Below are positions 3,483 to 35,390 of a stretch of DNA of 51,243 bases, piece by piece. The position numbers and the translations under genes are program-made. Origin of the DNA: Girardia tigrina (taxonomy: Eukaryota). The stretch lies in the NCBI GenBank assembly GCA_001938485.1, contig MQRK01237970.1:38064-89306 (forward strand), given 5' to 3'. The notes beneath the pieces are model-generated. The model did not search any database. It worked only from the letters and a program-made list of their open reading frames with translations, and was not told where the DNA came from. Within the stretch, counting starts at the first letter, position 1. Every line of letters begins with the position of its first letter.

Positions 3483-3929
3483 GTTTATTAAAATGACAAT
3501 TTTTGTTAAGTATTTATAAACCAAACAAAAAACTTAATTAAAAATAAGATCAATACTGAATTAAAAGTTCAAAATTAATATACTTTTTAATCCTTACTGA
3601 TATATCGTGTACTTTCGCATTTATTATTAATTTAAAAACAGTGTAATATAAATAATCAATCACGGATGAATTGTAATTTATGTATTGATGCCCCACGACA
3701 CAGGAACGAGATACAAATCAACTGGAAACTTAAAATAAACCCAGTCTCGAAAAATTATTATTTAGATGAGTATATTTGGTGAACGGTATTCAGTTTTGTG
3801 CTTAGAAAAGTTGTATCTAATGACATTGTTCGGAATTTAAATTTAAATATTTAAATTTTATTGGTGACACATGCTCGAAACATGTACCAGAAGATAAGTA
3901 ATGCTTTCTTTTTTTAGTCCAGCACCTGT

Positions 3930-4112
3930 CGTTCATTCCACATGTCAGGCAGCTAGGACTTGGTTCTGGCTTAATCCATTCATCCTTTTTCGTGTGCGCG
4001 AACAATACCAGGTGAACTTTTGAAGTTTTTATGCAAAGTTTTTCTTTTGAAAATTATAACCGGTCGCAACTTCGTTCCATTGGCAACAACTGTAAAATGA
4101 TTCTTCTCTAGA
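3930..4112 (-). mobile_element. pogo/Tc2-type (POGK-like DDE_1) transposase remnant
   Basis: Minus strand reads EKNHFTVVANGTKLRPVIIFKRKTL...VRAHEKG*MD, the pogo motif (FTVVL..ADGTKLPP.IIFKRK...GWMD), with stops. Confidence 0.75.
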
Positions 4113-6059
4113 ACGTATATAATTTCTCTATAGCCCTCAGATAAACCCAACTCGTTTTTAAAGGTGGATTTTGAGAGAATGTGAGCTGGTACACTTCGAT
4201 CTATTTCCTCGATCTATATCTAAGTGTGAGACTTTTGAATGAGATTTCTGGTGGGCGACAGACAAGGAGCGTATATTAGTGGTAGGTTTCGTAGGGGTTG
4301 TAATACGGGCCGACTTTGTTGACGTAAAGAACGACCGGGTTATTGGGTTGATATGATTGGTATAGTTTCGTTGAACAAAAATTGATAAATATAACGATTA
4401 GAATGAGAAAATCGACGAAATAATTCATTGTTTTTTGTCTATAATTGATTGTTGACGATTTCCTTTCGTCAGAATAGAAATGTCCACAATTTTGACACTA
4501 ATTTATCGTGGGTAATAAACGGTTAATTATAATATGCAAGTGCCAATATGCAATATATATTTTTATTGATACTTCTGTTTATAAGAAAGTATATATGGTA
4601 TATTTAAAAATATTTTTATATTTTTATTAAATTCAATAAGTGTAATAACCTCACAGAACACATACCGTTTTTTACTACTTGTCAAATATTTAGTTACGTT
4701 AAAGTGCCCTGTCTTTTTGTGACATGTAATTTATTTTTATGTGTTCTGAAAATTTTACAAGTGTATTCGCGTCATGTTTTATTTTTGTCCAAAGCGTTAA
4801 AGAAATTGAAGACATAAATTTTTGAAAAAGAAGAAGATATAAAGATGATGTAAAGATAATAATTATTGTATTAAAGAATTATTATAATATTAAATAAAAA
4901 ATTAATCGATACGAAATTTGATTTCGGATTTTAAAAAGAAAAATAATATTTTACTTACCGAACGACGGATAATTTTATGATAATAATTATAATTTGACAA
5001 TCCCAGCCATAAAAGACATTCAATCAGTTTCAACTCAACTTCAATCCAGTCCAAGACGACGATATTATTGTACTCGAGTCAGTTATCATTAACATTACCA
5101 ATATTTATCTACATTTTATTTTTACTGTAAGTTTTTATTGTTTCAATTAAACATATCGCTGTTAATCGATTTGTTCTCGTTTCATACTATATTAAAATTA
5201 CATTCATAAGTAAAAATAACGGTATTATCTCTCATCTTAAAGCGGGGTTAATATTGTTGTTTTTACAATAAGGTCTCGAAACTCTAAAATTAATGTTCAA
5301 ACGATACTCTCAACCAATTTGTTGAGTTTTCGATTAATTTTACATAATCGATTACACAATCATCAATTTCATATGTATAAGCAATAAAAAAAGCTAAAAA
5401 TCAGTGAAGGTGACGGTAAAACCTACAAAATTTATCACAAAAAAATATATTTTGAAATGGCATATCTTTTATTTTTTTTATAAAAAACGGATATTTGCAA
5501 TATATTATTTTTTGGAATTTTTTACAAATATTAGACTGATTTATTTTTTGCATGAAAATATTTGTATTCTTTCTTGTGAAATTTGAATTCAAATAAAATT
5601 CTAAAAAAATAGTTATTATCCAATTTGTTATACTTTATAACATCTAAGATTAGTGAACATTTCATATTCCAACAAGATAATCTTTGATTCATTTTTCTCG
5701 TTTGACCAAAAATATTTTTCAAAAAAGTATTGAAGTAATAAAATTGCTTCCATGAAGTTTAGAATTGAATATTAAAGAAACTTTTTGGAAACAATTGGAA
5801 AAGAAGAGTACATGTGTACAAAAAATATTTATATTGCAATAGCAAATAATTATTTTTCTTAAATTTGAAAATCTGCCGTTTTAAAATATTTTCATATTAT
5901 TTAATTTTTGAATATTATTTAATTTAACTGAAGTTCTTTTAAGAAATTTTTAAACAATTTATAATTTTAACCGTGTTATAAATATAGATTCAATAAATAA
6001 ACTAATAATTTTTAATGCATATTTAACGTTTAAAATTAATCAAGATTAAAATATCATTC

Positions 6060-6430: not shown

Positions 6431-8720
6431 AGGGTTTTTCGGGTTATTTAATAATTTTTGCAGGTAATTTAACAAAAAATTTAAACACAAAATGTATTAT
6501 TCATAAAATATATAAATACAAAAAAACATTGTGTAAAAAAGAAATAACTACATTTAAATATTTATCATGGAATTTCATCATTATTGTGGCTTAATGGATG
6601 ATATAGAAATTTGAAAAATGCCACTAATGTGTTTGCCACCTTATTCCCCTTTCTTAAATCTATTGAGAACATATTTTTATATAAATAAACTTATTCGACC
6701 TAAGCACAGTAGATAAATCTTTAAGAGAGTTTCACTACACTCTAAAATATGTTATGTTGGTGCCTGAGCGAAGAAACTGCACTAAAACAATTGGGATGAG
6801 AACAGTATACGCTGCAAACTTTCGAGCATTAGAAGTTATTAATGATGATAAAAACTTTATATTTTGGACAAAGTTAGCTTTACTGTTGTTACTCGTCCAG
6901 ATCGTAATAGATGTAGACGAGGAAAACCCGCTTTTTTGACTTTTCCGGTGGCTAGAAGTCGTAATATTTCAGTACTCACGCCGATGAACAAATATGGCAT
7001 GATTTATAATGCCACATTTGAAGGAGCAGTAAATGGAGAAAACTTTAAACAATGTCTTAAAGAAATTAAAGAGTGCTGCAATATCAAGGGTTTCGAAAAC
7101 CGAATATTTATCATGGAATTTCATCATTATTGTGGCTTAATGGATGATATAGAAATTTGAAAAATGCCACTAATGTGTTTGCCACCTTATTCCCCTTTCT
7201 TAAATCTATTGAGAACATATTTTCTGTATGGAAGAATAACGTTATTAGATGTTGTGCTCGAAATGAAGCAGAACTTCGAAGATTAATAGTTGATAACTTC
7301 AATGATATATCAACCGAAAATTGCGGCGCATTCTACCGAAAACTGCTTGGATATCTTCAAAGGGCTGAGATGGGACAAGTAATAAACGATTAAGTTTATT
7401 TATATGTAAAATATATACATGTAAAAATAAATTTAAAAATGTCGTTATTTCTTTTTTACAATGATTTTTGTATTAGGGTGAACCAAAAGTCTTTTCGTAT
7501 TTTCTACGTCTTTTTGTTCAATTGTTTCTTATTACCAAATAAAGATATTTTATATACATGTGTTATATGTTTTTAAAGCTCTTGAACTGCTCTATCACAA
7601 TATATATTAAAACTTCTAATTAGTCGTTAATATAATTTTGATGGTCTTTTAAAAAATCATGGAAAATTTTGAAATTCGTGTTATTTTACACCATTACTGG
7701 AAACATGGCTTAAACGCAACTGCAGCAACAAATAAGATATGCGAAGTTGAAGGCGATAATGTGGTCTCAATTCGTGAAGTCGTCGAGACAAATCCGTCAA
7801 TAAGTACTCGCAGATTGTCGGCCGAACTCGATATTCCTCAAACATCCATTGTACGACACCTTCACGCTCTTGGCAAGGTCAATAGACGATGTCGAGAAGT
7901 GCCTCATAAATTGACACAAATTTAAGCCGAAAAGTGTTTCGAAACTTGTCAAAAATTGCTTGAAAATCCGCGCAATGACCGTTTCATCCGTCGAATTGTA
8001 ATTTACAATGAAAAGTGGGTTTACTTCAGTAATCCAGACCAAAAAAATCAATGGTTGGACACCAGACAAATGGCGAAACCGGTAGCGAAACGAGATCGTT
8101 TCTCAAAGAAGGCATTTTTGTGTGTTTGGTGGAATTTCGAAAGCGTGATTCACTTCGAGCTAGTTCCAAATGGTCCTACCATCGACGCTGACCTTTACTG
8201 CGTCCAACTTGATCGAATGTATGCGGCACTTGGCGAGAAATACCCCGCTTTGATCAATCGAAAGCGAGTTCTTCTACAACAGGACATAGCAAAACCGCAC
8301 ACCACCAAACAAACAAAGGAAAAAATAAAAAATCTCGACACCTTTGAACTTCTTCCACACCCAGCATATAGCCCGGATCTAGCGCCATCCGACTATCACC
8401 TTTCCCGCTCTATGGCACACTTTCTTCGTGGTCGCAGCTTCAATAATCTGGCCGAGGTCGAAAAAGGGTGTCACCAATTCTTCGCTTCTAAGAGCAAGGA
8501 TTGGTACCGCAGCGGGATCGCACAACTTGCCCATAGATGGGTTCAAGCTATATATTCAAATGGCCTTTACTTTGAAACTTAAATGTTTTTTATTTGTAAA
8601 ATTATGTCTAAATTTTTAATAAAAAATACGAAAAGACTTTTGGTTCACCATAATATTTATATATTTTATGAATGATACATTTTGTGATTAAATTTGTTAC
8701 GAAATGTCCCGAAAAACCCC
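6431..8720 (+). mobile_element. Degenerate IS630/Tc1-type (DDE_3) transposon with long TIRs; right TIR interrupted by a mariner
   Basis: Frameshifted transposase pieces at 6690-7393 (VPERRN, KNFIFLDK, RSRNISV, LKSIENIFSVWKN). Left TIR ~6431-6560 matches 7432-7472 joined to 8656-8720. 6558-6678 duplicates 7105-7225. Confidence 0.75.
7473..8653 (+). mobile_element. mariner (DD34D) element, 1181 bp, defective
   Basis: 30-bp TIRs (TTAGGGTGAACCAAAAGTCTTTTCGTATTT, 1 mismatch) and TA TSD. Transposase 7659-8582 has EVPHKLT, NEKW, QQDIAKPH and YSPDLAPSDYHL, with an in-frame stop at 7923-7925 and an N-terminal deletion. Confidence 0.95.
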
Positions 8721-8935: not shown

Positions 8936-9160
8936 AGCTCAAAAGGAACTTATAGCGCGTGAAAAACAGCTCGATGAGATAATGAAATCCAAGAACTCGG
9001 AATATTCGCGAGATTTGCGAAATCAAATAAGAAAAAATGAAGAAGTGAAAATTGCCGAAAGAAACGCATTCTTCAAAGAAGGTGAAAAACTCGAAGAAGA
9101 AAAAAGAATTCGAAGAATGCGACTCGATGAAGCAAAACAACGAAAGCTTGAAGAACTCAG
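8936..9160 (+). CDS. CFAP45: CFAP45 coding exon
   Basis: tttag acceptor with a phase-2 join restoring ERTIRAQKE. Reads ERNAFFKEGEKLEEE..LDEAKQRKLEELR, then a gtaaag donor. Confidence 0.92.
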
Positions 9161-9211
9161 GTAAAGTAATCACAACTTTCGAAATATCAACACGGATTTT
9201 AAACGTTTCAG

Positions 9212-9281
9212 AAATGCCGGGGTATCGGAGAAATTTCTTCAACAACTGGAAAGAAAAATACAACAAGTTCAAAATTCATGA
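9212..9281 (+). CDS. CFAP45: CFAP45 last coding exon
   Basis: After a 51-nt intron reads RNAGVSEKFLQQLERKIQQVQNS* (cf. RATGLPEKY..EAERK). Confidence 0.88.
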
Positions 9282-9538
9282 ATCAATATCGATCTGATCA
9301 ACGAATAATGATTATTAATCTGATTGATACTGATTTGTGATTTCTTTATTCTACATTTTTATAAACAACATGCTCTGAATTGTAAAAATAGATTTTGTCG
9401 AAATACTGACGATAGTGATAACGATACAAATAAAATGATATCAATCAATCAATATCAGCTCTTATTAACATCGAAGAGAATCTCATGAAAAACAACTTTT
9501 ACAAAAGCGAATAAAACCGGGAGATGACGAAAAAAATG

Positions 9539-9667
9539 TCAAATCATAAAATTGAGTCTTTTGATTTGTTCGTAAGTTAGAAAAAATATGATATTCCACG
9601 GTCCGATTCGATACCAGGTCGGCACCAGACCCTTCCACAGGGCCAAAGGAGATTCGTTATTGATCGT
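9539..9667 (-). CDS. SLC25A14: SLC25A14/30-type mitochondrial carrier, last coding exon
   Basis: ttcag acceptor. [42 protein letters not shown] (cf. UCP5 [30 protein letters not shown]). Confidence 0.93.
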
Positions 9668-9789
9668 CTGAATACAAATTTCCCAATAACTTTGTACTCT
9701 TATAGTTATAGAATATCACATAAAAATAAAAGAATAATGACACAAATACATTAAAGATTAAGCGAAAATTCACATTGTTGCAATATATA

Positions 9790-11459
9790 CAGTTGGAGAC
9801 AAATTATTACATACACGTTTATTTATAATGTTTTTCTTTCATAAATATTTTATTAAAATGAATATCTTTCTGATATTTTTATACAATATTCTTTATGATC
9901 ATAAACACATTTTCGCAAAATTTCGTATATATATGTTCATTTTAAAAAAAGTTATAACACTTTGAACATAAAATACGATGGACAAATTATTAAATACACA
10001 AAGACACGGTTATGCAATAAAGGTCGGAAAGGTGATTTACGATTTAAATTATGTAACTTAAGTTATTATGCAATGTTATTACATACTCTAGGTAATATAG
10101 TTGATGTGTAAATTTGTGTAATTACAATCATGGGAAGGTCTCAAGATATATCAAAAGAAAAGAAGGTGACAATATTGGTTTTGTTAAAAAAATACTGAAC
10201 TTTCAATGCGAGAAATAGCTAGAAGATGCGATGTTAGCGTGATGACAGTATCAAAATGCAAGAATGACCCTGTATACTCGACTAGCGATGCTATAAGAGT
10301 AGGAAAAAGTGGTCGCAAAAAGGCTTCTACAACAAGTGAGGATAGAATACTGGTTCGCAACCTCAGAAGAAATCCTTTAGCAACTGCAGCTCAACTTCAA
10401 AATGAATGGAATTCTTATGGAGTTCGTGTATCTACTCGCACCGTGTGTCGCCGTCTCAATCAATTTGGGTTGTTCAATCAAAATTGGGTTGTCGATCAGT
10501 TAAAGCAAGACGAGCACCAAAGCTGACTCCTGCAATGAAACGAAAACGTTTAGCTTTTGCTCTTCTGCATCGTGAATGGAGATCAATGGAACAAGGTATG
10601 TTTTAGTGACGAAAGCACTTTCAAATGCCATTATGCAGAGAGGCCTCGAATTTGGCAAACTATAGGTTCACCACCCCCGACCAGACCAAGAACTAAGCAT
10701 CCAACTAAGGCAATGGTGTGGGGGATGATCAGTTGCAAGGGCCCTAGTTCAATTTACGTCTGTGATGGCATTATGAATTCGGAAAAAATATTTAGATGTC
10801 ATACGTAATTCAGCAATTCCTCAAATAAAGAAATGGTTTCCAAGAAGTAAAGATTTCATATTCATGCAGGATGGGGCACCCTGCCATACAGCTAAGATTG
10901 TGAAGACATATTTAGAAACGAAAAAGGTTCCGATGTTGCCTTGGCCGGGTAACAGCCCTGACTTGAATCGCATCGAAAATATATGGGCGTTGGTCAAAGA
11001 CCGTCTATGACGACAAACTATAACTACAAAAGTCGCCGAACTTAATCGGGTTTGGCTTCAAGATTTCGGCCTTACTGTGACAAAAAAGAACGTTATTGAA
11101 AGCATGCCACGACGGATTGATGCAGTAATTAAAGCTAAAGGAGATAATATAAGATATTAGAAACATTAAGGTAAAGTTTTGTACCTTAAATATATGTGTT
11201 TTGTGTATTATTTGGCTTTTCCGTTCTTTAATGCGTAACCGTGTTTTTGTGTATTTAATAATTTGTCCATCGTATTTTATGTTCAAAGTGTTATAACTTT
11301 TTAAAAAAATGAACATATATATACTAAATTTTTCGAAAAAGTGTTCATGGTCATAAAGAATATTGTATAAAAATATCAGAAAGATATTCATTTTAATAAA
11401 ATATTTATAAAAGAAAAACATTAAAAATAGAGGTGTATGTAATAATTTGTCTCCTACTG
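9790..11459 (+). mobile_element. Tc1 (DD34E) element with ~240-bp TIRs, frameshifted transposase
   Basis: Ends CAGTTGGAGACAAATTATTACATAC... / ...GTATGTAATAATTTGTCTCCTACTG with TA TSD. ORF pieces at 10130-11160 contain MGRS, SGRKKAST, FSDES, FMQDGAPCH, WPGNSPDLNRIEN and SMPRRIDAVIKAKG. Confidence 0.95.
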
Positions 11460-11509
11460 TATATATAATATTTGACTAAAAACTGTTTGTTTGTCAAGCT
11501 ATTAAATTT

Positions 11510-11626
11510 GAAATTGCGGAGGAACCAGAGTGAATCCATTTAAGAACGTGGTCAATATGGATAGCCCGCATCGAGACAATTCTGTCGGTACAGCGAATTC
11601 ACTGAAAGACGCTGGGAAGCCGACGA
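11510..11626. repeat. Copy 1 of a ~110-bp GC-richer direct repeat (copy 2 at 12602-12711)
   Basis: AAATTGCGGAGGAACC..GAATCCAT..TGGTCAATATGGATAG.CCGCATCGAGA..TCTGTCGGT.CAGCG..GACGCTGGGAA is shared by both copies. Confidence 0.85.
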
Positions 11627-11649
11627 AAGCGATTGAAAACCGTGGTATT

Positions 11650-12374
11650 ACGACAAAACGCCGAATTTAATAATTAAATTTAGTAAAATTTTATTTAAGT
11701 AATATTAATAAAATGAATGTTATTAATTGTAATTTTTTTCAAGAATGGCTTAAATTAACCTATAAATAAGGTGAAAATGTCTGGAAGTCGCAAAAAATTT
11801 CAATGCATATTTGTGGTGAAAAACTAAATTATAGAAAAATTAAATGAAGCCCAGTCCGTTTTTTGTTGATAGAATGTTAATATTTTGTTTTTCAGAAAAT
11901 ATTTTACAAAAGTCAAAATATTTTTAAACAATAAAAAATCTTATTTTATTCTAAGTTTTGGAATTATTTATATAATAATATTGGAAAATATTTTTAATGT
12001 TTATTCAATTGATTACTATTTTTTTAATAATTTTGAGCATTAATTTATTTAGCATAAAGAAATAAAAATAAAGACAATATTTTTCAATATTATTTTAAAA
12101 ATAATTCTAAAACTTAAAATAATATATTTTAATATATAAAATAATATTTTTAATGATTTTTTATGATTTAAAAATATTTTCTTAAAAACAAAATATTAAC
12201 ATTCTATCAACAAAACGGATTGGGCTTGAAATTTTTTGCTTCTTCCAGACATTTTCAGCTTATTTATAGGTTAATCAAAGTCCTCTTTTGAAAAATTTTC
12301 AATTAATAATATTCATTTTAATAATATTAATTCAAGTATTAAATTCGACGTTTTTATTCGCTGCGTTTTGTCAT
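11650..12374. mobile_element. ~725-bp foldback/MITE-like inverted repeat
   Basis: 11650-11910 is the reverse complement of ~12170-12374 (e.g. GAAAATGTCTGGAAG/CTTCCAGACATTTTC, TTGTTGATAGAATGTTAATATTTTG). Confidence 0.8.
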
Positions 12375-12601
12375 AGATCCGAAAACCGTACAAGTCGTTA
12401 AATGGTTAAATTAACACCGATTTCGAATAATCCCGATTTGAATGATTCGTACAAGGATTTCATGAATTTTTTTTTAAAATACTAATAAATTTGATAAATG
12501 ACGATTTTTATCACTTATTTCCTAATTATTTTGCTAAAAATCAATTTTGTAGAAATTACAAATTTTCTTTATTAAAAAAGAATATAAACAAATAAAATGT
12601 A

Positions 12602-12915
12602 AAATTGCGGAGGAACCGGAATGAATCCATGAATGAATGGTCAATATGGATAGTCCGCATCGAGATATTTCTGTCGGTGCAGCGTCGTCACCCAATGACG
12701 CTGGGAACCGATTTAATTGACTGACTGTTAAATCAACACAGAATTCGAAGCAATAAATTATAATAATGACGTTTTAAAAATTAAAAGAGAAACTTTCAAA
12801 GACGAAAATTCAGATCACTCGTCATATATGACAGGTCTTTTTCTAGTAAAAATAAATTTCAGTCCTAAATACGCCAAGATGTGGTAATTGTAAACCCTTA
12901 TTACAGGGTTTACAA
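12602..12915. repeat. Copy 2 of the ~110-bp repeat plus downstream stem-loop; probable Helentron/DINE-like non-autonomous element
   Basis: Repeat copy at 12602-12711 and a perfect hairpin TTGTAAACCCT-tattac-AGGGTTTACAA at 12888-12915. The family assignment is inference. Confidence 0.5.
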
Positions 12916-13303
12916 ATTAATTTAATCCCGTGAAACTTTAACTTAATCCACCTTAAAATCAACTGATATTTTGAAAATACGAAAATTGTATTTTTGTATC
13001 AAAATTCTTCTCTTTGAATACCTTTAACAACAAATTGATTCATTTGCTAGAAATAATTTTTCATATCTTCTTCTTTTATCGTAAGAGCAGTGTGATTGAT
13101 TGCAAGCATCAATTCTTCACTGTTACTACAATTATGGTTTTTAATATTATTTTCCCATTTGGTAAAAATAACAGCTCATGTCCATACCCAGAAACCAAAT
13201 CCTTTTATAACATCTATATAACAGATGAAATAAAATTTATAGTGTCTTCAGTCATTATCAGTTACTTCACTTTGGGCATTATTGTGATATCAGTGCACGC
13301 TTG

Positions 13304-14490
13304 CTAGCTTGGGAAACGTTTTCGATTTTCTGCAACAACTTGCAATAGAAACTGCAAGTGATCTTCATCTTTAGTCAAGGATCCTGAATACTGTTGTATG
13401 AGAGATACACCTCCTTCAGCATGATCATTTGTAGCTGGTAAGTTAGAAATAGCTTTGACAGCTACCTGATAATCGATTTTCTCTACCCTCTGCGAGGCGG
13501 GTAATTTGAGAAATCCGTGTGGGAGGCTCAGTTTTGTAAAAAGTGAAATACTCTTCTTTGTTACAAAGTCAGCAATTGATTTCTTTTGAAGTTCATATGA
13601 GGAAACTATATCTAACTTAGCCGTTTTTTGTGGATCATCTTCAGGACCATCAACTTCAAATACAGCTCTTGCCATTTTATTTTAGATATCACAACCAAGA
13701 GATTTGTCAAAAAGGCCGCAACATTTTTCGGGATGTGGTACTTGATATAGCAGAATTTACTGATTTATAACTCAATATGCTAATAAGCAGCTGATGATCA
13801 TTATTAGGTGCTTCTGGCAAAAATATGCGTAGATCACATAGCCCTTTCTCCTCTCTTATTGCTATGTTAAATTGCAAACGAGACATCCATATAAAGAATG
13901 ATATAAAGAATGCTTTAAGATCTTGCATTACATCAGATAGAGCATCTCTTGCAACCTGATCTGTATTTGGGTCTTCATACTGACTTGTCTTCATTTTTTG
14001 CCAATGAGATTGAAATCTCTTAAATAAAAGAATATCTAGAGCTGATGATGAACACATCATTTCGTTAAATGCTGTAACAGCTACAAGTTCAAGGATATGA
14101 TGGCGACATGCCCCTCTACGTCCCTTTGTGTTCTTCTTAGAGAATATTTCTTTAATCATTGCCATACATGAAATAGTGCTTCCAATTTTTTAATAGAATC
14201 TTGTTTATGTCGCACTTGTATTGCAGCACGACTCCAGAATTCTTCAACATTTTCAACAACGCGAACGGATGATTCACGGACATTTTTTTCTTTTCTCGAT
14301 GCAGGTATAAGAAATATCCTAGAATTTGATGATTAGAATGAATCTTTAACCCTCTAATTTCTTTTGTATAACTTCCTAGCAGATACACAGACTTACTACG
14401 TTTCGTATTAATCGCTGTCATTAAATTGCAATTGAAATTATTGATTAAGATAATATATAAACAGATTTTAAACCTTTTAAAAATAGTCAA
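13304..14490 (-). mobile_element. Degenerate hAT-related (hATm-like) transposase
   Basis: Frameshifted ORFs with ACRHHILEL (CxxH) and a C-terminal TNDHAEGGVSLIQQY..LTKDEDHLQFLLQVVAENRKRFP motif. TIRs were not resolved. Confidence 0.7.
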
Positions 14491-15609
14491 TAATTTTTAC
14501 AATTTTGCAGCTCTTAAAATATTTTAGTATGATTGGAAGAATCACTATACAAACTTAAGTATGCTTAAAATGCTTAATTAATAAAGCTTCAGCTAACTTC
14601 CTTTCATAATACGTAAATTATTATTTTAATTAATATTTTTAGGAATTAAATCTTTTAAAAAGATTAAGAAAAATTGTTCGAATAATCATGTTTAAAAATA
14701 GAAATAACGAAACCAATTAGAGAGATGTCAAACGGTGAAAGATCTTTCGAGAGTTGTAATGACTCTAAATGTGATAATAATAAAAATTCAAATGAAAATG
14801 GTCTCAAATGTTCTTAACAGTAATTTTACTTGTATTATTATTTGTTTGTATAAGTTTCCAGGGCGACAAACAACGTGCTACGGAATTTATCATTTTAAAT
14901 CGTGGGCTCTAGTTATAAGCCTATTACGGACAGTTTTGTATACACATAGGCCAACACTGTTCTCTACGTGTTGCATAGAAATATTATTTCTAACATCGGT
15001 TTCATGGTATCGTTTCTCATAGAAACCATATTAGAAACCATAGAAACTTTTTATATTTCTTGTTCTAAAGTTTAATATTATTTTTATTGACGGCCATAGA
15101 ATGCTGATTTTCTAATTGAATACTTTAGTAAATTAAATTTTATTTAAAATTGTTTTAATAATTGTTAATTATCATAGAAATAATGTTTTGCGTTTTAATG
15201 AATTCTATTCTTGACCAAGAACCCACCAATTATAATTTTTTAGTGTTCAAAATATCTGAAAAAATATTTTTTTTAATTATAAATTTTGTATAAGTACCTA
15301 AAAATAATAATTTCTAAAATGTATTTTTTGAGTTTTGAGACAATTTTAGTAGTTTATAATATTTGAAATTAAAATGTTTGAAAGATTTAGAATTAAACGT
15401 TTTATTGATTTAAAAATAGTGTTTTTAGTAGTTTAAAACTAAATATTATTTTAGAAATAAATAATTTTTGATTGCGTTTCTACTTCCTACAAAACAAGAC
15501 AAAACTTTCAAAATTTATTTAAAAATTGACATAAAAACATTGTTTTTATTTTTAATTTTTAATATTTTTTAATTTTGATAGGATAAAAATTAAAATTGAA
15601 TTTAAAAAA

Positions 15610-16558
15610 TTCAAGATTATTTTACAAACTAGTAAATCAAAATATTTTTTTATATTCATTCTTAATGGTGGAAAAACTCTATTTGGCCAAGAGAATTTGT
15701 TTCTTTTGTAGATGGGAAAATTATTATTACATTTACTTTTTATGAGGGGTTAGCTTAAATTTGCATTTCGCCAAAATAGTTTATTATTTTTTTAATTTGA
15801 AAATTTAAAAAAAAGTAAATCAAAAATGAAAATGTAAAGTAATCAGAAAAATTAAATTAAAAAAAATTTAAAATATTCTTGCAGTCATAACAATTGATAT
15901 ATCTCAAAATTAATAAAATTTATGAAATAAGTTTAAATAAATTTTAAAATAGATAATTAACCGATTAATATTTTAAGAAATAATTTTGTAATAAAAGGCT
16001 TATAGTAAATTGAAATTAATTAGTTTTTAAGATAAATTGTAAAGTTTTGTAAAAATTTAAGAATTATTTTTAAGTTTAAATTTCGTAAAATTTTGTAAAA
16101 AATATAAAAATTATTTTAAAGTTTAAAATTTAGCAAATTTTCAAAATTTAATCGAAAAAAATTTAATAGATTAATTTTGGGTGAAATAATTGGATTAACA
16201 AGAAATTTGTTTAAATATGTGAATTGTTGATCTTAATAAAGATTGTGGTATTAAATTATGAGTTCAGAATTTGATAATAATGAAAGTGGAATAAACGCTA
16301 CTTACACTTTTTATCTTTACCTTTTTTGAGTAATATAAACTACTTAGAATTTATAAGTAGATCTTTTTATACTAATATTGTTCAGGAACTCCGATTTGGT
16401 CGTTTTTAACCATTTTTTGACCTTAAAAAGATTTTGTCTGATCAAATTTTTACATTATCATTTATTGTCATCGAAAATGAGTGTGCAAAGTTTGGAGAAA
16501 ATTCGTTGAGCAAAAAGCCTTCAAAAATAAGTTTCTAAATTCCATGGATATATATATG
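15610..16558 (+). mobile_element. Helitron-like non-autonomous repeat ending in (TA)n; inverted copy at 23974-25075
   Basis: 16330-16558 is the reverse complement of 23974-24200 (AAGTAGATCTTTTTATACTAATATTGTTCAGGAACTCCGAT; CATTTATTGTCATCGAAAATGAGT). 15610-15690 matches 24995-25075. Class is inferred. Confidence 0.6.
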
Positions 16559-16895
16559 TTTGAATTTTAAATAATTTTAATTGGAAAAAAAACGACAAGT
16601 ATTGAAAACTATTAAAAAATCGAAAAAGAAAGAAAGTTAAAAAATTATCGAAACGTTTCTCAAATTCGGCTTTTGTTATTTAATAATGAATTTAATTTTC
16701 AAGATCGGATAATTCGTTGCAATTTCAATATTAAAAAAAAACACTTATAAATAATAATATGACTTTTGTTGTCTTTGCTAAATGATTGCGCCCTTCATGA
16801 TGATGATTTCATTTGAAGTGTATTTAGCTGAATGAATAAAAATTTGTTTTCTCAGAATTTTTTTATTTAAACGAAAGAAATTTTTTCTGTTGAAA

Positions 16896-16961
16896 GAAAA
16901 ACATCATCAAATTTAAAAGGAAAATCTCTATTACTTTTGTGCTGAATAATAAATAAATATT
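16896..16961 (+). repeat. 66-bp direct repeat, left copy
   Basis: 64/66 identical to 18497-18562. Confidence 0.95.
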
Positions 16962-16978
16962 TTCCGGGTTTAATTCAA

Positions 16979-17391
16979 ATGGTGATATTCGGACAATCTA
17001 TAGACGTTGTGGATATGCTCCTAATCGGGGCATTAATCTGTGTTTTTGTATCGCTCATGTTCTATGTGATTAGTTTTGCGAGCCCATTTTGGTTAGTGTC
17101 ATTCGATACATCGTGAAACAGTTTCGTTAGAATGGGAATTTGGTCGGTGTGTTTCAATAATTTCATTCATCCAAGTGATTTAAAAAAACAATCGTTTTTC
17201 GGGTTGTTTTTTGGTTATATGCCGACGTTTTTTGGATTAAAGGGATGTGGATCTACATCAATCCGTATTGGTTGATTGCCGTGCAAGTTCTCATGAGTCT
17301 TGAACTGATCTTGCTGTGTGTCACTGTCATCTGCGTTATCCTCTACTTCATCCTTGTTGGCAATCCGATTGTCGAATCGAAAATTGCTCTC
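16979..17391 (+). pseudogene. Invertebrate claudin-like (PMP22/claudin; Sinuous/Kune/Mega-type) intronless gene fragment
   Basis: MVIFGQ..TM1..SFASPFWLVSFDTS*NSFVRMGIWSVCFNNF..(fs)CFWL..NPYWLIAVQ-TM2 carries the W-GLW-C-C signature. Stop at 17114, frameshift near 17204, truncated after TM2. Confidence 0.8.
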
Positions 17392-17922
17392 GAGTGTCAG
17401 ATGAATAACGACTATCGATTATCGCGGATTGAGAATAGAATCCAACATTTTTTGAAAATGAAAATCGATGAGTTAAAATCTGTTTTTAAAAAAAATGATC
17501 AATACATGAAAAAATTGAGATATTTTCTCAACGTGGCGCATTGTCAGCAGTTGTTTGTGTTCCACAACAATGACAGCCAACTGACTCTGTTGACAGAGTC
17601 ATGTTCACTACAGAGGAAAGGGCACAGAGATTGGGTCTCGGATCGCCGAAAAACAACGTGAGAGTCAAAATTTTTATTTGTCCCTCCAACCTGACGATCG
17701 CCCACCGCCGCCGGCGCGCCGCAATCACAAAACCGCTGCGCCCGCTCTTGCATCACCATTTTTGGTAGCAGAGTGTGGTTTCGGCGGTTTGGTGACGGCN
17801 NNNNNNGTCTTCGGAATTGGGGATTTGATTTTTTTTGTTGAAACATCCTCCCTCTGATGGAGGATAATCGAGTGGTTGTTGTTCTTTTTATGAATGATTT
17901 GTGTGGTGTTTTATAAAAATTT

Positions 17923-18411
17923 TTGAAGGAAGGGATTTCCCAAGGTTGGCACCAGGCGTGTGTTGAGTGTCAGCGAGAGTCGAGTGACATGCCGCCCCGT
18001 TTCAATAATGGGCCCAGCACCCGGGAGAGACTTGTACCTCGGCTCTCACTGAATGGTGATGTTGTGTTTGGTTTAGATGGTGGAGTGTTTGGTAAGTTTC
18101 CTAGCGCCGAGGACCATAATAAAATTATGAGTGGTTTGAAAAATTTAAACTTTCAACCACGGTCGAAGTGCCCCCTTACCCACTAGGTTTTCGTCAGGAC
18201 AATCTCCAGAAAGACGATCACGCTGGAGGTGAATTCCAACGATACTGTTGAGGAAGTCAAGGAGAAGATTCTGAGCAAGGAAAGCATTCCACCAATTCAA
18301 CAGCGTATTATATTTGTTGGGAAGCGGCTGATGGACGGCTGACTGGTGAAGGATTACGATATCCAGAATGGATCCACGCTCCATCTCCTTTTAAGATTGA
18401 GGAGTGAGTGA
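17923..18411 (+). pseudogene. Divergent ubiquitin-like domain (18187-18411) with in-frame N-terminal extension; two nonsense codons
   Basis: [76 protein letters not shown] at 18184 sits at ubiquitin Q2 and TGA at 18340 sits at R54. The upstream 87 codons are open in the same frame. Confidence 0.85.
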
Positions 18412-18496
18412 AAATAAAAAAAGAAATAATCAAGATCGATCAGAAACAACAATGGGAAGAGGGAAAGAAAAAGAAGGCGACTTGGAAAAGGGTCTT

Positions 18497-18562
18497 GAAA
18501 AACATCATCAAATTTAAAAGGAAAATCTCAATTACTTCTGTGCTGAATAATAAATAAATATT
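18497..18562 (+). repeat. 66-bp direct repeat, right copy
   Basis: 64/66 identical to 16896-16961. Confidence 0.95.
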
Positions 18563-19964
18563 ATAAAGATAACTAATAACCAAAATAAATATAACTAAAA
18601 TTATTTATAAAGCTAAATAACTTCTCAAAATAATAATAAAACGAAAATAAATCCTTCAAATTTTTAAAATATTTTAGTATATATTACTTACATTTATTCT
18701 TTTACACTAATGCATGACTTGTCCAAAGGTTCTAATGATGCCCCAGTTAATTTATGGTTATTGTGTACTTTTAAATTAATTAATAACAAAATGATAGACG
18801 GAATTCTGTGACTGATTAAATTTCGCCTAGTAATTAGTTTAGCAAATATCCAGAGAAGCAAGTCGCTCTATTGGGGAGTGAAGTGCTGGGTACCGATAAG
18901 TACACGTACTGCATGTCTGTTGCTGACATTTGTGAAAAGTGAGGTACTGGCAAATGAATATTGATCTTTTACTTTTCCTTAGCTAAAGAAAGCATCAAAA
19001 TTTTATTAGTATTAAAAAAAGGTTTCTGTTGTTTGCACTTTTTATTATCCTTAATTCCCCATTCCATCAAATACAAATAAACACCCGAGTAGGATTCTAA
19101 TATAATTTGCTCACTGAAAGAATTCCATTAAGAGAGCCATTGATCACTGAGATCCGCAGCAACCATCGACTACTCCGATTTTTGTTGAGATTTCAAAAAC
19201 GTGTCCTCTTAAGAATCAAATAAACATCCTATTATCATTCCTTGCCAATTCACCGCGGTCCTCAATTTCAATCGTAATATTTGATTAAAGTGTTATCAAA
19301 CTTTTAACTATCTTTTAATTTAGTAAAAAAGTCATTTCTCAACTTGCACATACAAATAGCAAACAGAGCAAAGGTGATCCAAAATATGTTAAATGCATTG
19401 CGAGACTAGCGAGTTCAGACATGTGAAGAAAGCACTTAACATCAATCAATATTCAACATCCATTTATTTATTAAAGTAGCGCACCGACACGAAGTAATGA
19501 AGAAGATATATTGTCGTAATTTAAAGATTTTAATTATTTTTATTTATACATTCCGACATAACTGCCGGTAACTGTACACGATTTCACTTCAGAAAAATAG
19601 ACTTTTATAAATTAAATTAATTTAAACAAAATAAATTTGCATGAAAATTTTTACATCCGTTAAATTTGCACATGAAATTCGAATATCAGTTCTATATTGT
19701 ACGTCAGCGTTAAAATATTTATGGCTCATCAGCTGCTAAAAAGTCGGCTTCTGCAAGCAATGATGATCATGTAATTGGTTACTTTTATCCACTGGAAGCA
19801 AATATGATGCTTGAAATAATGAGTGCAAACAATAAATACTAATACTGAAATTCCTTTCACCCTGTACGATTCGTGGAAGGCAAATTTAGAAAAAAAACGT
19901 CTTTTTATCATAAATATGACAGTTAACAGAACAAATAAAAGTTATATATATATATATATATATA

Positions 19965-21317
19965 CAGGGTGAGTCAGAAGTCACCGGGTAGTCAAAACGA
20001 TACAGGTTTTAAAAATTCAATTTATTATTACATTAAAATTGTGTACATAATCTTACGGAGTAAATGCTCAAAAGTAGATGCCGCCTTCTTCAATGCATTT
20101 TGCAGTCCTTCGAACGACAGAATAGCAAGCACTTAGGCATAAATCATCACTAATTTCTGTGCAAGAATTCATTATCATTGCCACAAGTTGATCTATTGTT
20201 CCCGGCTTTTTGACATACACTGAATTCTTTAACACACCCCAAAGAAAGAAATCGGGAGGAGTAAGGTCTGGAGAGCGAGGAGGATACTCGATGGAACCGC
20301 GGCGACCAATCCATCTGTTTGGAAAGTTGTCGTTCAGTCAGTTTCGCGCTACAATGATGTAATGGGGAGGTGCACCATCTTGTTGAAACCACATCTCCTA
20401 AAGCGGCCAGTTCTTCACACAGGGTATAAAATTATTGTTAAGCATTGACACGTAACTATCACCTGTCACAGAACCTTTAAAGAAAAACGGCCCTACCAGA
20501 CCGGAAGCAGTGATTGCAATCCAAACTGCGATACCAACTGCGTTGACTTCTTTTTGTAGGATTTCATGCGGATTTTCATGGGCCCAGTAAGCAGAATTGT
20601 GACGATTGACCTGTCCGTTAAGCTTGAGAGTTGCCTCATCACTCCAAATAATCGTCTCCGGAAATGTAGAGTCCTCATGGCAAAGTTGTTGAAAAATCTG
20701 AGAGAATTCAACTCTACGGTCATAATCATCTTCATTCAAGGACTGGAGTAAATGTGGACGGTAAGGTTTTAAATGAGCATCGTGCAGGACCCTGACAATG
20801 GAAGTTTGAGAAATGCTAAGCTCTTGTGATGCTCGTCTGGTGGATTTTCGAGGATTATTCGTACAACTATATGTAATAATTTTTCTGTTTTCAGAGTTGC
20901 AAACAGATTTAGGTCTACCACATCTAGGAAGATCTTCGCAGGAACCAGTTATTTCAAAGCGGTAAATTAGATTCGCTATTGTGTCTCTTTTAACCACCCT
21001 ACCAATTTTTTTCTTGGAATCATCTGCATATTTAACTTTTGTTGTCCGTTTTATAAAATGTATTTATGAGAAATACGCGTTCTTCAGTTATTAGTTTGGA
21101 ATTATTTTACTCTGCCATTTTTAAGGTTTGTTAAATGATGAAATTATCGACTATAAATATGAAATTATAGACTTAAATGGACTATTTGTACGATGTGTTC
21201 ACATGATCTTCTTAGTGAGTTTACACCAAGAAATCAACCGATTGATCGATGTAAACTCATTTTTGTACACTTGGATCACTAATATAATGACTGCCCGGTG
21301 ACTTCTGACTCACCCTG
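19965..21317 (-). mobile_element. rosa/DD41D Tc1-mariner element, 1353 bp, defective
   Basis: 30-bp TIRs CAGGGTGAGTCAGAAGTCACCGGG.AGTCA, TA TSD within a (TA)n run. Motifs WSDEA, FQQDGAPPH and RSPDLTPPDFFLWG, with 41 residues between D2 and D3 and in-frame stops. Confidence 0.93.
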
Positions 21318-21410
21318 TATATACCAGTTTTTACAGCAGCGAGTGACATGATGTGCATTTTCTATTTTATTCATCAATTTTTTAATGTGAAAAACATATT
21401 ATACTGTGAT

Positions 21411-22234
21411 TAACGGATAACATGAAATAGTAGGACACCTACTATTTTAATAGTAGGTGGAAAAAAAATTGAAAAGGCGCCCAATATTGGTTTACACCTA
21501 CTATTTGGTGCTTTTGTTTTGAACTNNNNNNNNNNNNNNNNNNNNNNNNNNNNNNNNNNNNNNNNNNNNNNNNNNNNNNNNNNNNNNNNNNNNNNNNNNN
21601 NNNNNNNNNNNNNNNNNNNNNNNNNNNNNNNNNNNNNNNNNNNNNNNNNNNNNNNNNNNNNNNNNNNNNNNNNNNNNNNNNNNNNNNNNNNNNNNNNNNN
21701 NNNNNNNNNNNNNNNNNNNNNNNNNNNNNNNNNNNNNNNNNNNNNNNNNNNNNNNNNNNNNNNNNNNNNNNNNNNNNNNNNNNNNNNNNNNNNNNNNNNN
21801 NNNNNNNNNNNNNNNNNNNNNNNNNNNNNNNNNNNNNNNNNNNNNNNNNNNNNNNNNNNNNNNNNNNNNNNNNNNNNNNNNNNNNNNNNNNNNNNNNNNN
21901 NNNNNNNNNNNNNNNNNNNNNNNNNNNNNNNNNNNNNNNNNNNNNNNNNNNNNNNNNNNNNNNNNNNNNNNNNNNNNNNNNNNNNNNNNNNNNNNNNNNN
22001 NNNNNNNNNNNNNNNNNNNNNNNNNNNNNNNNNNNNNNNNNNNNNNNNNNNNNNNNNNNNNNNNNNNNNNNNNNNNNNNNNNNNNNNNNNNNNNNNNNNN
22101 NNNNNNNNNNNNNNNNNNNNNNATACACCTACTATTTGATTCCACCTACTATTTTAATAGTAGGTGGAAAATTTTTTGAAAACTTCATTACACCTACTAT
22201 TTCATGTCCACCTACTATTTGATGTTATCCGTTA
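21411..22234. mobile_element. Unclassified MITE with TAACGGATAACAT termini and CACCTACTATTT subrepeats; spans an assembly gap
   Basis: Inverted termini TAACGGATAACATGAAATAGTAGG / CCTACTATTTGATGTTATCCGTTA, with an N-run at 21526-22122. Confidence 0.7.
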
Positions 22235-22569
22235 GTATGTTGTGCTGAGATTTAGCAATCAAATAGTGTTCAGTGAAATGAAAGCATCTGTATTTTACAC
22301 TGAACATTTTTTAGAAAATAAATCATATTTTCTTTGAATATTAAACCTAAAAAACCTTGAATTTTGAAATATCGACTATTGTCTAGAATGACCATGAAAG
22401 ATATTTGGCTAATATCATTACTATTATTAATATATGACTTATAATAAACTTTGACACGAAGCTCTCGATCGCCTAAGTTTTAATTGAAATCGTAAGAATT
22501 TGACCTTGAAAGACTTGAATCAATATATCGGGCCATATTAGGATTAATGATGTCTATCTAAAATATAAA

Positions 22570-23212
22570 CAGTGGGGGAAATTGAATTAAAGACACAATG
22601 TGTAAAATAAAATTTAAATAATATATTTATTCATTTTGTTTTGCCAGATAGAAATCACGCACATTTTCAGTTTACCTGTTTTCTGCATCATTGTAGAATG
22701 GGTAAAAAACATGATTTGGCTCTACAGATGAGAGAATGCATTTTAAAGCTGATGAAGGATGGAAAGTTCTTTCGTGAAATATCTATTATTTTAGGTGTAC
22801 CTAAAGGAGCTGTAGAAAGTACACTAAGGTTAAGTACAATTTAAATTAATTAATGGTTAGGCCTAAAAGTTATTAATTATTATTTTCAAATGTAGATGTT
22901 CAATAGAACAGGATCCTGCCATGGTACACTTGAAAATTGTCATGAGATGGTGAAGATTACACCAAGGACTGCAAGAAAACTGAAGTATACTGCCAGAGGA
23001 AAAAAATTTCTGTCATCAAAAGAACTGCTATATGAACATGTCACCTCAGGTGGTATTGCATTGACTAACAAGACTATAAGAAACTGCTTAAAATCCATGA
23101 AATTGAAATTTTTTTGTTGCAAAACAAAAGCCTTATGTGACTACCTTTCAAAGGGCTAGACGAGTGAATAGGTTTCCAAAATAGGTTTCTGTAGTGTGAA
23201 TTTCTCCCACTC
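22570..23212 (+). mobile_element. Internally deleted Tc1 element with a probable intron in the transposase HTH region
   Basis: CAGTGGGGGAAATT left end and AATTTCTCCCACTC right end. MGKKHDL..FREISIILGVPKGAVESTLR / MFNRTGS..KITPRTARKL is split by a 66-nt AT-rich segment ending TGTAG. Confidence 0.7.
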
Positions 23213-23973
23213 TTTCTTTCATTTATCCTTCATTTCTTTTATACTGCCTTCTTACGATATGTAATTTTATTTCTTATTTTTCGTATGGTCTCTGAGTCCA
23301 AAATTATTTATTTTATGTATGTTTATTTCTTTTTATTATTATTTTATTTTTTTATCATGTATGGTTATGATGATTTTTTTATTTTTTATGTCGAAATTTA
23401 TTTTTGGTGGAATTGGTGAATTAGTGAATTGTTGGTCTATTCGAGATTATAAAATCTTTAATAAAAATATCTCAATTCAAATAGCCCATAGCAATATGGG
23501 ATATTTGAATTTGAGATTTAAAATAGAATCAATAATGCATTGATTCACAAATCTGAAATTTAGAATTATTAATAACTGTCAAAAATTTATTATTTGGCGA
23601 ACCTGATATTTGCGGAACCAATTCTTATCATTTTTACGAAACTACTTTCAACATCGAAACATTCACGGTTTCGATTTACTACCGATTGTATATTTGACGA
23701 CCAACCTTTTGTAATTACGAGTGGTAACTATTTACATTGTGTTTCAGTGTTCTACTATTATTAGTGTTATTAGTAATTTTGATTATTTTTTGGAGTTATT
23801 TCTTTTTTGCAAAGTTACTAAACTTACCAAATAACTTTAACATTAGGTCAGTTTAGTACTTTAGTTCCTTTTATACATCATAATTAATTTATCTGATAAA
23901 ACCTCCAATTTCTTCTTTGTTTCGTTCGGAGGATAAATTTGGAGTTTTACAGTTTCCATGAATAAATAAATAA

Positions 23974-25075
23974 ATATATATATATATATCCGTGGAAACA
24001 TATTTTTGAAGGCCTTTTAATCAATCAATTTTTCAAAGTTTTGCAAACTTACTCATTTTCGATGACAATAAATGATTATGTGAACATTTGATCAAAAAAA
24101 CTTTTAAGATCTCAAAATTGGAACAAAACGATCTCATCGGAGTTCCTGAACAATATTAGTATAAAAAGATCTACTTATAAATTATAAGTAGTTTATAGTA
24201 CGCAAAAAATAAATTAAAAATTAAATAAGGTCCTATAAACCATTTTAAAGTCTAACTAGTTGTTGGGATCTTGATCAATAATTAATCAATAATTAAAGTC
24301 ATGAAAACGCAAAACTTTATTTAAAACTATTTTTGCTAAGAAATTTTTATTTTGTTTTCTTTTCCACTAGATTGATTATACGTAAAAATACTGAATTATA
24401 AATACTAATGTATTATTTATTAAAATTGTTGCTTTCGAATGGAATTTATTATTTTTTAATTACAATAATTTTAAAGAATTACATTTCAATATTTAATTAA
24501 ACACCATTTTTAACATCTATATAATTTAAATATAAAAAATTAATTTACAATATTTAATTTTATTATTATACTACTAGAATTTATAACTTAATTATAATAT
24601 TTTTAATGACTGTTTTTTATAAAAAAAATCAGCTGTTTAAAAAATTAATTATTTATCAAATTTTTTTCACAGAATTTTCAAATAACTTTAATATTTAAAA
24701 AATTATCTGGTTTAAAACTTACATTTTTATCAATTTAAATTTCGTTAATTTATTTTTGAGAATTACTTTGTGAAATTAATTAGAGATATTTTTAAAAATA
24801 TTTTTTTGCTTATTTTTATTTTTTAGCTTATATTTGCTTATTTTAAATATTCAAAAAATATAAGAGTGCGCCAGATCCTCACACTGGCAAATCAAAAAAA
24901 TATTTTTTATAATAAAAACTCTGCCTGACCAACAGAATTTTTTCAATTTTTATTGTGTTTTTTTAAAAATATTTTTTATTTAAAATTTTTTTGGGAAAGT
25001 AGAGTTTGTCTGCATAAAGAATGGATATAAAAAAATATTTTTTGATTTACTAGTTGTATGAGATAACAATTTAAG
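23974..25075 (-). mobile_element. Second (inverted) copy of the Helitron-like repeat at 15610-16558
   Basis: Reverse-complement identity blocks with 16330-16558 and 15610-15690. Ends in (TA)n. Confidence 0.6.
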
Positions 25076-25124
25076 AAATCAAATTACATTATTTAAATAT
25101 AAAATTTATAACTTAATTTAAATA

Positions 25125-25843
25125 ACGTATTTTCACACATATAAACCACAGGTTTTCACTATTTATGTAAGAAAGTTTTTATAAACCCCATAGAAAAAAA
25201 TTTTTTGTGTGATATTTGAAAAAAAATTTTATTTTTCAAAAAGTTGAAAATTGATGTTGATAAAAAATTTAAAAACAAAGAAATTTGTAAACAGTCTAGG
25301 GACTCATACTTTTATAGTGTCTGGTCGTTTGCGTCGTGCAACCCATGCAAATGCCTGCAGCTAAGTACTTAATGCGGGGAACAAAATTTCTCCTGTTACT
25401 ATCTGGAATGGATTTAAAAAAGGCAGGCATCATTGCTGACGAAAAAGAAGACGCTTCAAAGCTCAGTGGACACTCGACAAACGAAGGTGGCGATCTTCTA
25501 GAAGACGTTATAAGGGCCGAAAGACCAGAGGTCGTTTTATTGACATTTAATGATGATTCGGTCGACGATAATTTTGATGGATTTTCTTCAGCTATTGAAA
25601 AAGAGGAAAAATCAAATCTTAATAAATTTGTTAATACCGTTATTCTGATTTAAATATGATTATGATATCAACATGATTTCTAAATAAATGTTTTCTTTTT
25701 ATTGTTAATGTTTTCTTTTTATACTATATTTATTGTTGTGTAAAATATTTTCGGGATAACCCTCGACATAATATAACCTGCAAGGGACAAGCTTGGTAGG
25801 TAAAATCACACAATACCCGCGGGTTATATGTGTGAAATTGCGG
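25125..25843 (+). mobile_element. Tc2/pogo-type deletion derivative
   Basis: TIRs ACGTATTTTCACACATATAA.C / GGTTATATGTGTGAAATTGCGG with TA flanks. Residual transposase C-terminus KKAGII...DDNFDGFS. Confidence 0.7.
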
Positions 25844-25864
25844 TAATTGTATTTAAAAAAATAC

Positions 25865-27699: not shown

Positions 27700-28870
27700 C
27701 GGTATGATAAAATTTTAGCTTTCAGGTTCAATTTTAAGGTACCGATTGGAAGTCTACCATTCAAATGATCTGCAATGTGGTCCGAGGAGCAAGCACAAGA
27801 TCGAAGCGAACTCCTTCGAATCAAAAGTGACTACATGACCACCAAGAGGAGTTAAGACATTCATTGGAGAAAATTGACGAGACTCACTGAATTTGTGAGA
27901 AATAGAAACAACGACACTTTTTCTAGGTGGAAATCCAGCAGAATACTTTTCCAGAAGAATATCAGAAGATGGAAACGTAAAAGAGTCGAGACTAGAGGGA
28001 AGAAATACAGATGGGGAAAAAGATCAGTGGGAGAAAGAAGCAATCAATCTCAGAATGCCTTCGAGTGGACAAAGTGGCTATTTTTGGGATGATTCGGTCT
28101 ATGGAGATTTCATTAACCGCATCATTCACAGACTCTACTGTATCGAGAGAAACATACATAAACCCCTTAATTCGATCAGGAAGACTCAATAGGACAAGAA
28201 CAACTGTGCCGAAGCTGATCAACGAGAGAGAAAAACGTCACCAATATCTAGTAGAAAGATGCTACAAGGAGTTTGGCAAAAAAATTAACTGAATAGACAC
28301 ATCAAAAGGGACCATGCGGTGTTCGCTTCCGCTAATATTGATCAACCCAACGAAACACAACAACAGCAATTACGATTTCCATGTACACTATGTAAAATGT
28401 CATACAAATCGAAGAGGTAACTGACCGGGTATATCAACCAGTATCATAAATAGGAGGAAACCGAAGAAATTGGAAAACCGACAATGACACCACCGCAAAC
28501 CAGTACAACAAATAGCACAGAAGAAAGAGTCGTAGAAAACCTCAACATTCTAGTCAACCAGATTCAATCCGTGACTATCTCGACTGCGGTGAAGGAAGCG
28601 ATAGATATTGAAGAAACGCATCTGACTTTTAGGATTGCAGATCTAACTGCAAAGAGAAAGTTTAGATGACCCTTTCGTGGCTGTACGAATTCAACGAATA
28701 CATCCAAAGGTATGTAGAACCATGGATATACAGTGGTCGTTTCTTACAGAGAAGCAAGAAAAGATCTCGGAAACCTAAACTATCCGACCCCGTAGGAGGC
28801 CTACCGTGTGGGCTGCTAGTGATTCTTTAGTTTGGGTGCACCCTCTAAAGAGTCAGCCCACATGATAAAA
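27700..28870 (+). mobile_element. Decayed R2/NeSL-type non-LTR retrotransposon N-terminal (C2H2 finger) region with terminal hairpin
   Basis: FPCTLCKMSYKSKR*LTGYINQYH at ~28376-28448, a second degenerate finger near 28660-28723, and a strong stem-loop at 28806-28863. Family is inferred. Confidence 0.45.
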
Positions 28871-35105: not shown

Positions 35106-35390
35106 ATGAGTATGTTACGAGAACTGCAGTCTGTGATTCAAAGTAAACGAGTTCCTATATCGCTGAAAAGAAGACTAATCGAATCAAGCATTTTTCGGGC
35201 AGTGTGTTATGGGAGTGAGTGCTGGACAAAACCTGAAAAAGAGGTAGCCCGGATACAAGCTTTTCATAATACCTACTCACGCACTACTCTTGGTAAAACT
35301 AAACTTGACATAATACGTAATACTGATGTGTCAATTGGTTTTGCCCGAGGCGTGTGTGGTACTGGTGAAACGGTGTATTGTATTCTTTGA
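35106..35390 (+). mobile_element. RTE-type LINE reverse-transcriptase C-terminal fragment
   Basis: ISLKRRLIESSIFRAVCYGSECWT..RIQAFH..LG.TKLDIIRN motif. Confidence 0.75.

Follow-up and report, generated by a model that had tools for sequence, protein, structure and literature searches.

How does a string of GC-rich pieces from several host genes, all in one orientation (+) and framed by two long direct repeats, come to lie within the intron of a mitochondrial carrier gene? The question is raised by a cassette of Girardia tigrina, which was analyzed within a stretch of 51,243 nucleotides, referred to below as the window (positions count from its first letter). Our preferred answer, to which we give a probability of roughly 45%, is that the cassette is a decayed, multi-copy and non-autonomous patchwork of gene starts of the Pack type, copied into a staggered break with duplication of about 66 bp of the target.

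The window is eukaryotic DNA of 30% GC with three N gaps. Its + strand carries exons of CFAP45 (Pfam TPH; the best PDB matches are CFAP45), and its − strand a mitochondrial carrier gene (Pfam Mito_carr), presumably of the SLC25A14/30-like subfamily; the two genes lie tail to tail, their ends within about 400 bp of each other (9160-9550). The second-last exon of the carrier gene is at 25963-25865 and its last exon begins at 9667, which confirms the antisense position within a 16-kb intron that the earlier note on this DNA had given for the cassette (Table 1). Relics of Tc1/mariner and Gypsy elements are numerous across the window. Other elements occur at 7471-8655, 9783-11466, 11694-12335 and 19959-21323, and comprise a mariner that lies within a Tc1-like relic, a Tc1 whose TIRs measure 249 bp, a palindrome of foldback-like form and a further TIR element. 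Inside a Tc1-like relic there is also a 121-bp direct repeat with 100% identity (6557-6677 and 7103-7223), the first copy of which comes after the left end of the relic; it is either an internal duplication or an assembly effect. At 3860-4460 (−), within a CFAP45 intron, a broken gene start, presumably resembling TM9SF1 (Pfam and PDB gave no matching hit), is directly joined to a piece of a pogo-type DDE_1 transposase (E 0.0018); this second gene-start chimera within 51 kb has no long flanking repeat. A GIY-YIG motif at 49255-49560 (−) and an RT motif at 50018-50250 (+) are taken by us to be Penelope-like (Pfam gave no confirmation), and the stretches 27750-28700, 32699-33010 and 35106-35390 to be LINE-like relics of R2/NeSL and RTE type, judged by their motifs and with no Pfam hit. 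Finally, one repeat end of about 250 bp is present in two inverted copies (81%) that each adjoin a TA run and flank the cassette region, at 16308-16557 and 23980-24220; as TIRs of an enclosing element this pair was rejected, since its TA-bounded ends appear to face inward.

Table 1. Features of the cassette and of the intron that holds it, by position in the window
Feature	Position	Strand	Description or basis
Host intron of the mitochondrial carrier gene, cassette inside	9668..25864	-	about 16.2 kb, from exon positions
Left 66-bp direct repeat	16896..16961	+	probable target duplication; reverse strand with weak mariner-TIR-like motif
Leader before the claudin-like ATG, 17 nt	16962..16978	+	sequence
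Broken claudin/PMP22-like 5' piece	16979..17395	+	TM1, first loop with GIWxxC motif, TM2
AT-rich tail	17396..17540	+	about 29% GC, measured over 17381-17520; first 41 nt also read through in P0154
GC-rich block, 52% GC	17541..17799	+	no significant family match in frames tested
7-N scaffold gap	17800..17806	.	sequence
Block with no significant family match in frames tested	17807..18076	+	profile search
15-nt ATG-led exon piece	18077..18091	+	in phase with ubiquitin-like exon once spliced
95-nt spliceosomal-type intron, phase 0	18092..18186	+	GTAAGT ... pyrimidine tract TAG; GC 0.42
Broken ubiquitin-like exon	18187..18411	+	internal TGA 18340-42; C-terminal GG lost; stop 18409-11
Purine-rich 3' block	18412..18496	+	no poly(A)
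Right 66-bp direct repeat	18497..18562	+	TT directly before it, so that 6 nt (TTGAAA) match left flank

The outline of the cassette agrees with the earlier note, which had described a GC-rich insert encoding no transposase or RT, between two 66-bp direct copies that lack TG..CA ends and TIRs. The insert of 1535 bp has a GC content of 0.425, compared with 0.205 and 0.307 in its flanks, and no other 1.5 kb of the window is as rich in GC: the value is reached by none of 860 other 1535-nt windows (maximum 0.385). No transposase or RT match was obtained in the insert ORFs and frames tested. The cassette yields no intact protein, and the copy is dead. Its two halves on either side of the scaffold gap have nothing in common except the 66-mer. 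Searches of plasmids gave no match to the left half, and those of phages one 52-nt match (81%) to the right half, which was taken as chance; a bacterial promoter scan, not relevant here, stayed at chance level.

The two repeat copies share 64 of 66 positions and are not lengthened when gaps are allowed in the alignment. Their longest shared exact run is 33 nt, compared with at most 21 nt each time in 30 simulations by an order-4 Markov model of the window. A third copy does not occur within the window, and the first 33 nt have no exact match in bacterial or archaeal genomes. With a GC content of 0.20 the repeat resembles both flanks (0.22 and 0.15), unlike the ends of the insert (0.39 and 0.36). 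As to continuity with the flanks, the result is borderline on the right, where 6.3% of GC-matched windows score as high, and negative on the left (55%). The start of the repeat is ambiguous: allowing for a slip of 4 bp in the left copy, TTGAAA precedes both, which can be read as a 68-bp register of the repeat that begins with TTGAAA, or as 6 nt of microhomology that the cargo end has with the target. The repeat ends in AATATT, with no CA end, and a TG start is available only in the alternative 68-bp register. Inverted pairs between 16500 and 19950 do not exceed 81% or a length of 32 nt, and across the outer edges there is no exact match of 6-11 nt that would represent an outer TSD. No strong hairpin precedes any CTRR near either end (folds of -0.4 to -3.1 kcal/mol), the 66-mer contains no hammerhead core, and three weak Rfam matches all fall far below the gathering score. 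The sequence 3' of the left repeat does not begin with TGG, as a primer-binding site might, and the window has 0 tRNA genes.

The first piece of cargo had been called a claudin-like, intronless 5' fragment, and this identity is weakly supported by profile (Pfam Claudin_2, E 0.053; lens membrane protein MP20, E 0.031). It contains two strong hydrophobic helices (mean hydropathy 2.76 for TM1 and 3.12 for TM2), and is broken at 17114-16 by a stop and at 17195-17212 by two T-runs that shift the frame by a net +2. A homology search with its first part passed none of nine candidates, and bacterial and archaeal genomes held no relative among 112 pattern matches. The AT-rich tail behind it is intron-like or of other nature. 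As a decayed remainder of the claudin, the sequence at 17541-17700 was rejected: no frame has a hydrophobic helix (best mean hydropathy 0.28-1.39), and Pfam gave no hit. Beyond the gap, the block at 17807..18076 probably belongs to the ubiquitin-like gene, as its 5' part or as sequence upstream of it. At the far end of the insert, the block at 18412..18496 may hold another ATG-led gene start; 28 of 30 positions at 18451-18480 are purines, ending 16 nt before the right repeat, a count reached by nine 30-mers on the + strand of the window, this site included. The insert has no poly(A) or simple-repeat 3' tail.

The ubiquitin-like domain itself is clear (Pfam PF00240, 84.8 bits against a cut-off of 25.4). 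The earlier note had regarded it as part of a fusion ORF, which does not hold, as an in-frame TAG at 18184-86 precedes the ubiquitin-like codons and forms the end of a 95-nt intron. The only GTAAGT of the insert lies at 18092, with an in-phase ATG 15 nt upstream, and the strongest pyrimidine-rich acceptor ends at 18186, directly before the first ubiquitin-like codon; the donor alone would occur within 150 nt by chance in about 2.6% of cases. Because the GTAAGT...TAG intron sits exactly before its exon, at least this piece was copied unspliced, and not from mRNA. Template-switching retroposition of mRNA, one of the mechanisms that had been considered, is weakened by this canonical intron. The GC content of the intron, 42% compared with 16-20% for three small host intron stretches, leaves room for a source outside the ordinary host gene set. 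A viral source of the cargo is conceivable. Of 74 residues of the piece, 28 are not those of ubiquitin, corresponding to at least 35 base changes (at least 16%); compared with neutral decay, the changes are more conservative by a small margin only (P 0.025-0.075). Judged by its sequence, it is possibly the product of old decay or a diverged paralogue. Three of four candidates passed in a homology search, the best at 61% identity, none being a close parent. A deep library search that included the ubiquitin domain was uninformative on the upstream block, all of the 150 matches listed being multi-ubiquitin proteins.

The claudin-like piece was met again in a second, different setting. A search with its second part gave one candidate, which passed: P0154, of 167 residues, encoded on one contig of 862 bp. 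P0154 is identical at 70 of 76 residues to the translation of 17209-17436, including the tail beyond the claudin similarity, and has its own claudin profile match (E 0.079). Its N-terminus is ODR4-like (Pfam E 0.0014, profile positions 1-74, 18.1 bits against a cut-off of 24.5). The join lies at an MGIW motif that is also present in the claudin-like piece of the window, and about 18 residues have been lost after it, between two look-alike stretches. The reading frame of P0154 is open over all 167 residues despite the junction and the internal deletion. Each of the six differences from the window can be explained by a one-base change, P0154 being known as protein only; damaging-looking changes occur in both copies, and which copy changed can be assigned only provisionally. 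If neutral, the divergence would amount to about 3.6% at the DNA level (2.6-5.3%), similar to the ~3% between the repeat copies (95% CI 0.4-10.5%). Since the ubiquitin-like piece is at least 16% from ubiquitin and the repeats only about 3% from each other, the cargo would predate the insertion or derive from a diverged paralogue. Unless P0154 is an assembly chimera, the claudin-like piece with its tail would be part of two different chimeras, and it is the only cargo found in more than one copy. The proposal that pieces of host transcripts are captured and shuffled is in part strengthened, as P0154 joins the same piece to another 5' partner; its assumption of a transcript origin is weakened by the intron.

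In the reading that we prefer, unspliced 5' ends of host genes would have been linked by template switching wherever short stretches look alike, and a small family of patchworks would have resulted. The claudin-like piece was copied repeatedly, together with its tail, and became attached to different partners, the ubiquitin-like piece downstream here and the ODR4-like piece upstream in P0154; for the other pieces such multiplication would have to be assumed. One patchwork copy would then have been copied into a staggered break in the intron, primed on the 6-nt TTGAAA microhomology, and fill-in would have duplicated about 66 bp of target on both sides. A long target duplication is the most likely reading of the repeat. 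The enzyme would have acted in trans, most plausibly that of a retroelement with widely spaced nicks that copied unspliced or antisense RNA; such a retroelement is the likeliest source because long LINE TSDs are on record, 126 bp for R9 and more than 50 bp for Dualen, as outlined in PMC9977147. These LINEs resemble the cassette in their unusually long flanking direct duplication, whereas the cassette has no LINE sequence or tail, and its cargo is unspliced and chimeric.

Several observations favor the staggered break: the flank-like GC content of the repeat, the absence of TIRs, a CA end, a hairpin with CTRR, a hammerhead core and an outer TSD of at least 6 nt, and, as far as the two sequences can tell, the sharing of the claudin-like piece with P0154 at a divergence similar to that of the repeats. 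Against it stand the missing poly(A) or simple-repeat tail, the retained intron, the borderline or absent continuity with the flanks, and the nature of P0154, which is a single 862-bp contig that may be an assembly chimera and whose ODR4 match is below the Pfam cut-off. The LINE relics of the window are candidates by motif, with no hit in Pfam. No parent gene, empty site or donor enzyme for the cassette was seen. The retained intron argues against ordinary mRNA retroposition, and as a LINE retrocopy the cassette fails on both tail and intron loss. TRIM- and LTR-mediated retrocopies share with it short direct repeats, and the purine tract near the right repeat may be a further likeness. A TG start is possible in the 68-bp register; unlike them, the cassette has no CA end, no evident primer-binding site and no outer TSD of at least 6 nt, and keeps its intron.

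Among the alternatives, which we take in descending order, it is unlikely that the 66-mer is the end of an element in its own right, namely a short pseudo-LTR (pLTR) of Penelope type, with Penelope enzymes mobilizing in trans the DNA in between, introns included. The window has the Penelope-like RT and GIY-YIG motifs mentioned above, for which Pfam gave no confirmation. The cargo keeps its intron, and the repeat is free of TG..CA. In reports outlined in PMC3846280 and PMC8557442, host genes with introns are framed by the direct pLTRs of Penelope elements, between which unrelated host DNA is captured. The system of Adineta vaga (PMC3846280) is similar in its direct terminal repeats without TG..CA, its intron-containing host DNA and its mobilization in trans. 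However, pLTRs are reported there to measure 181-218 bp, often with an inverted copy and with TSDs of 8-10 bp, and none of these was found here: the repeat has 66 bp and not about 200, shows no hammerhead core and no Rfam hit at the gathering level, and occurs just twice in 51 kb, and the cargo is a multi-gene patchwork.

More doubtful is the proposal that an undescribed family of elements with short direct repeats, in an animal lineage, has the 66-mer as its cis-acting end; such a family would collect unspliced gene starts, move them as cassettes and reshuffle them by microhomology switching. It would form a "Pack" class with direct instead of inverted ends, and some of its chimeras, such as the ODR4-claudin one, would be open and possibly transcribed. 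Pack-MULEs and Pack-TIRs, as characterized in outline in PMC8277862, are likewise non-autonomous, carry GC-rich host fragments with introns kept and microhomology joins, and have multi-copy cargo; they differ in their TIRs and short TSD, which the cassette lacks, its ends being the 66-bp direct repeat.

Repair by DNA synthesis is less probable again. A break at or near a mariner-like end, repaired by synthesis-dependent annealing or by fork stalling and template switching, would copy a pre-existing patchwork and re-copy 66 bp of the broken end. Tc1/mariner relics fill the window, the 121-bp repeat is a second long direct duplication, within a Tc1-like relic, and intron retention and microhomology fit models of gap filling and of FoSTeST as outlined in PMC8277862. 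The reverse strand of the repeat agrees with the core of the Hsmar1 TIR (PMC8327481) at 13 of 19 positions, a score equaled by 0.9% of AT-rich 66-mers, the motif having been picked after the repeat was seen. This score is reached at seven sites of the window, two of which are the repeats and five lie elsewhere, and the repeat shows no significant match (17% of the null) to the mariner TIR of the window itself. The partner inverted end was not found, and Pack-TIRs lie by definition between inverted ends. Background on RTE TSDs and mariner TIRs is outlined in PMC13295347 and PMC4678618.

It is distinctly improbable that the cargo comes from the interior of a gene-capturing Helitron, or of another Pack element, with the 66-bp repeat as an unrelated local duplication or a rolling-circle overshoot. 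Helitrons make no target duplication, and the cassette is flanked by a 66-bp duplication and has no Helitron termini. The repeats and the GC-rich cargo adjoin without a gap, an arrangement not expected from a separate event, and no strong hairpin precedes a CTRR. The type of cargo is alike, and the chimera at 3860-4460 provides a second gene start joined to transposase. Bat Helitrons prefer promoters, 5' UTRs, first exons and first introns, which are captured sequentially and give strings of 5' ends with partner variants (PMC4224331, in outline; the bias to gene starts and first introns also in PMC6431247). Just as improbable is an artefact in which two repeat-bearing contigs were joined across the 7-N gap: the halves share only the 66-mer, the cargo is multi-copy and the scaffold has two more gaps, but both repeat junctions fall within called sequence at a large distance from the gap, the copies have two differences and are thus not one collapsed read, and the carrier exons are in order on both sides.

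In its cargo the cassette works like a Pack element or gene-capturing Helitron, and in its ends like an insertion of long-TSD or pLTR type; for each family it fails one of the defining tests. In the titles and abstract openings searched, mostly outside subscription journals, this combination is undescribed. Capture of fragments from multiple genes is a familiar phenomenon in plants (Pack-MULE) and in bats (Helitrons), and a rare one in other animals; the cargo of the cassette behaves like those, whereas its ends, a long direct repeat without TIR, LTR or rolling-circle signature, do not. If the repeat is a target duplication, long-TSD insertion extends to unspliced chimeric passengers; if the repeat turns out to be dispersed, it would mark a new vehicle for exon shuffling. 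Being a dead copy, the cassette matters as a record of a mechanism and not as a gene.
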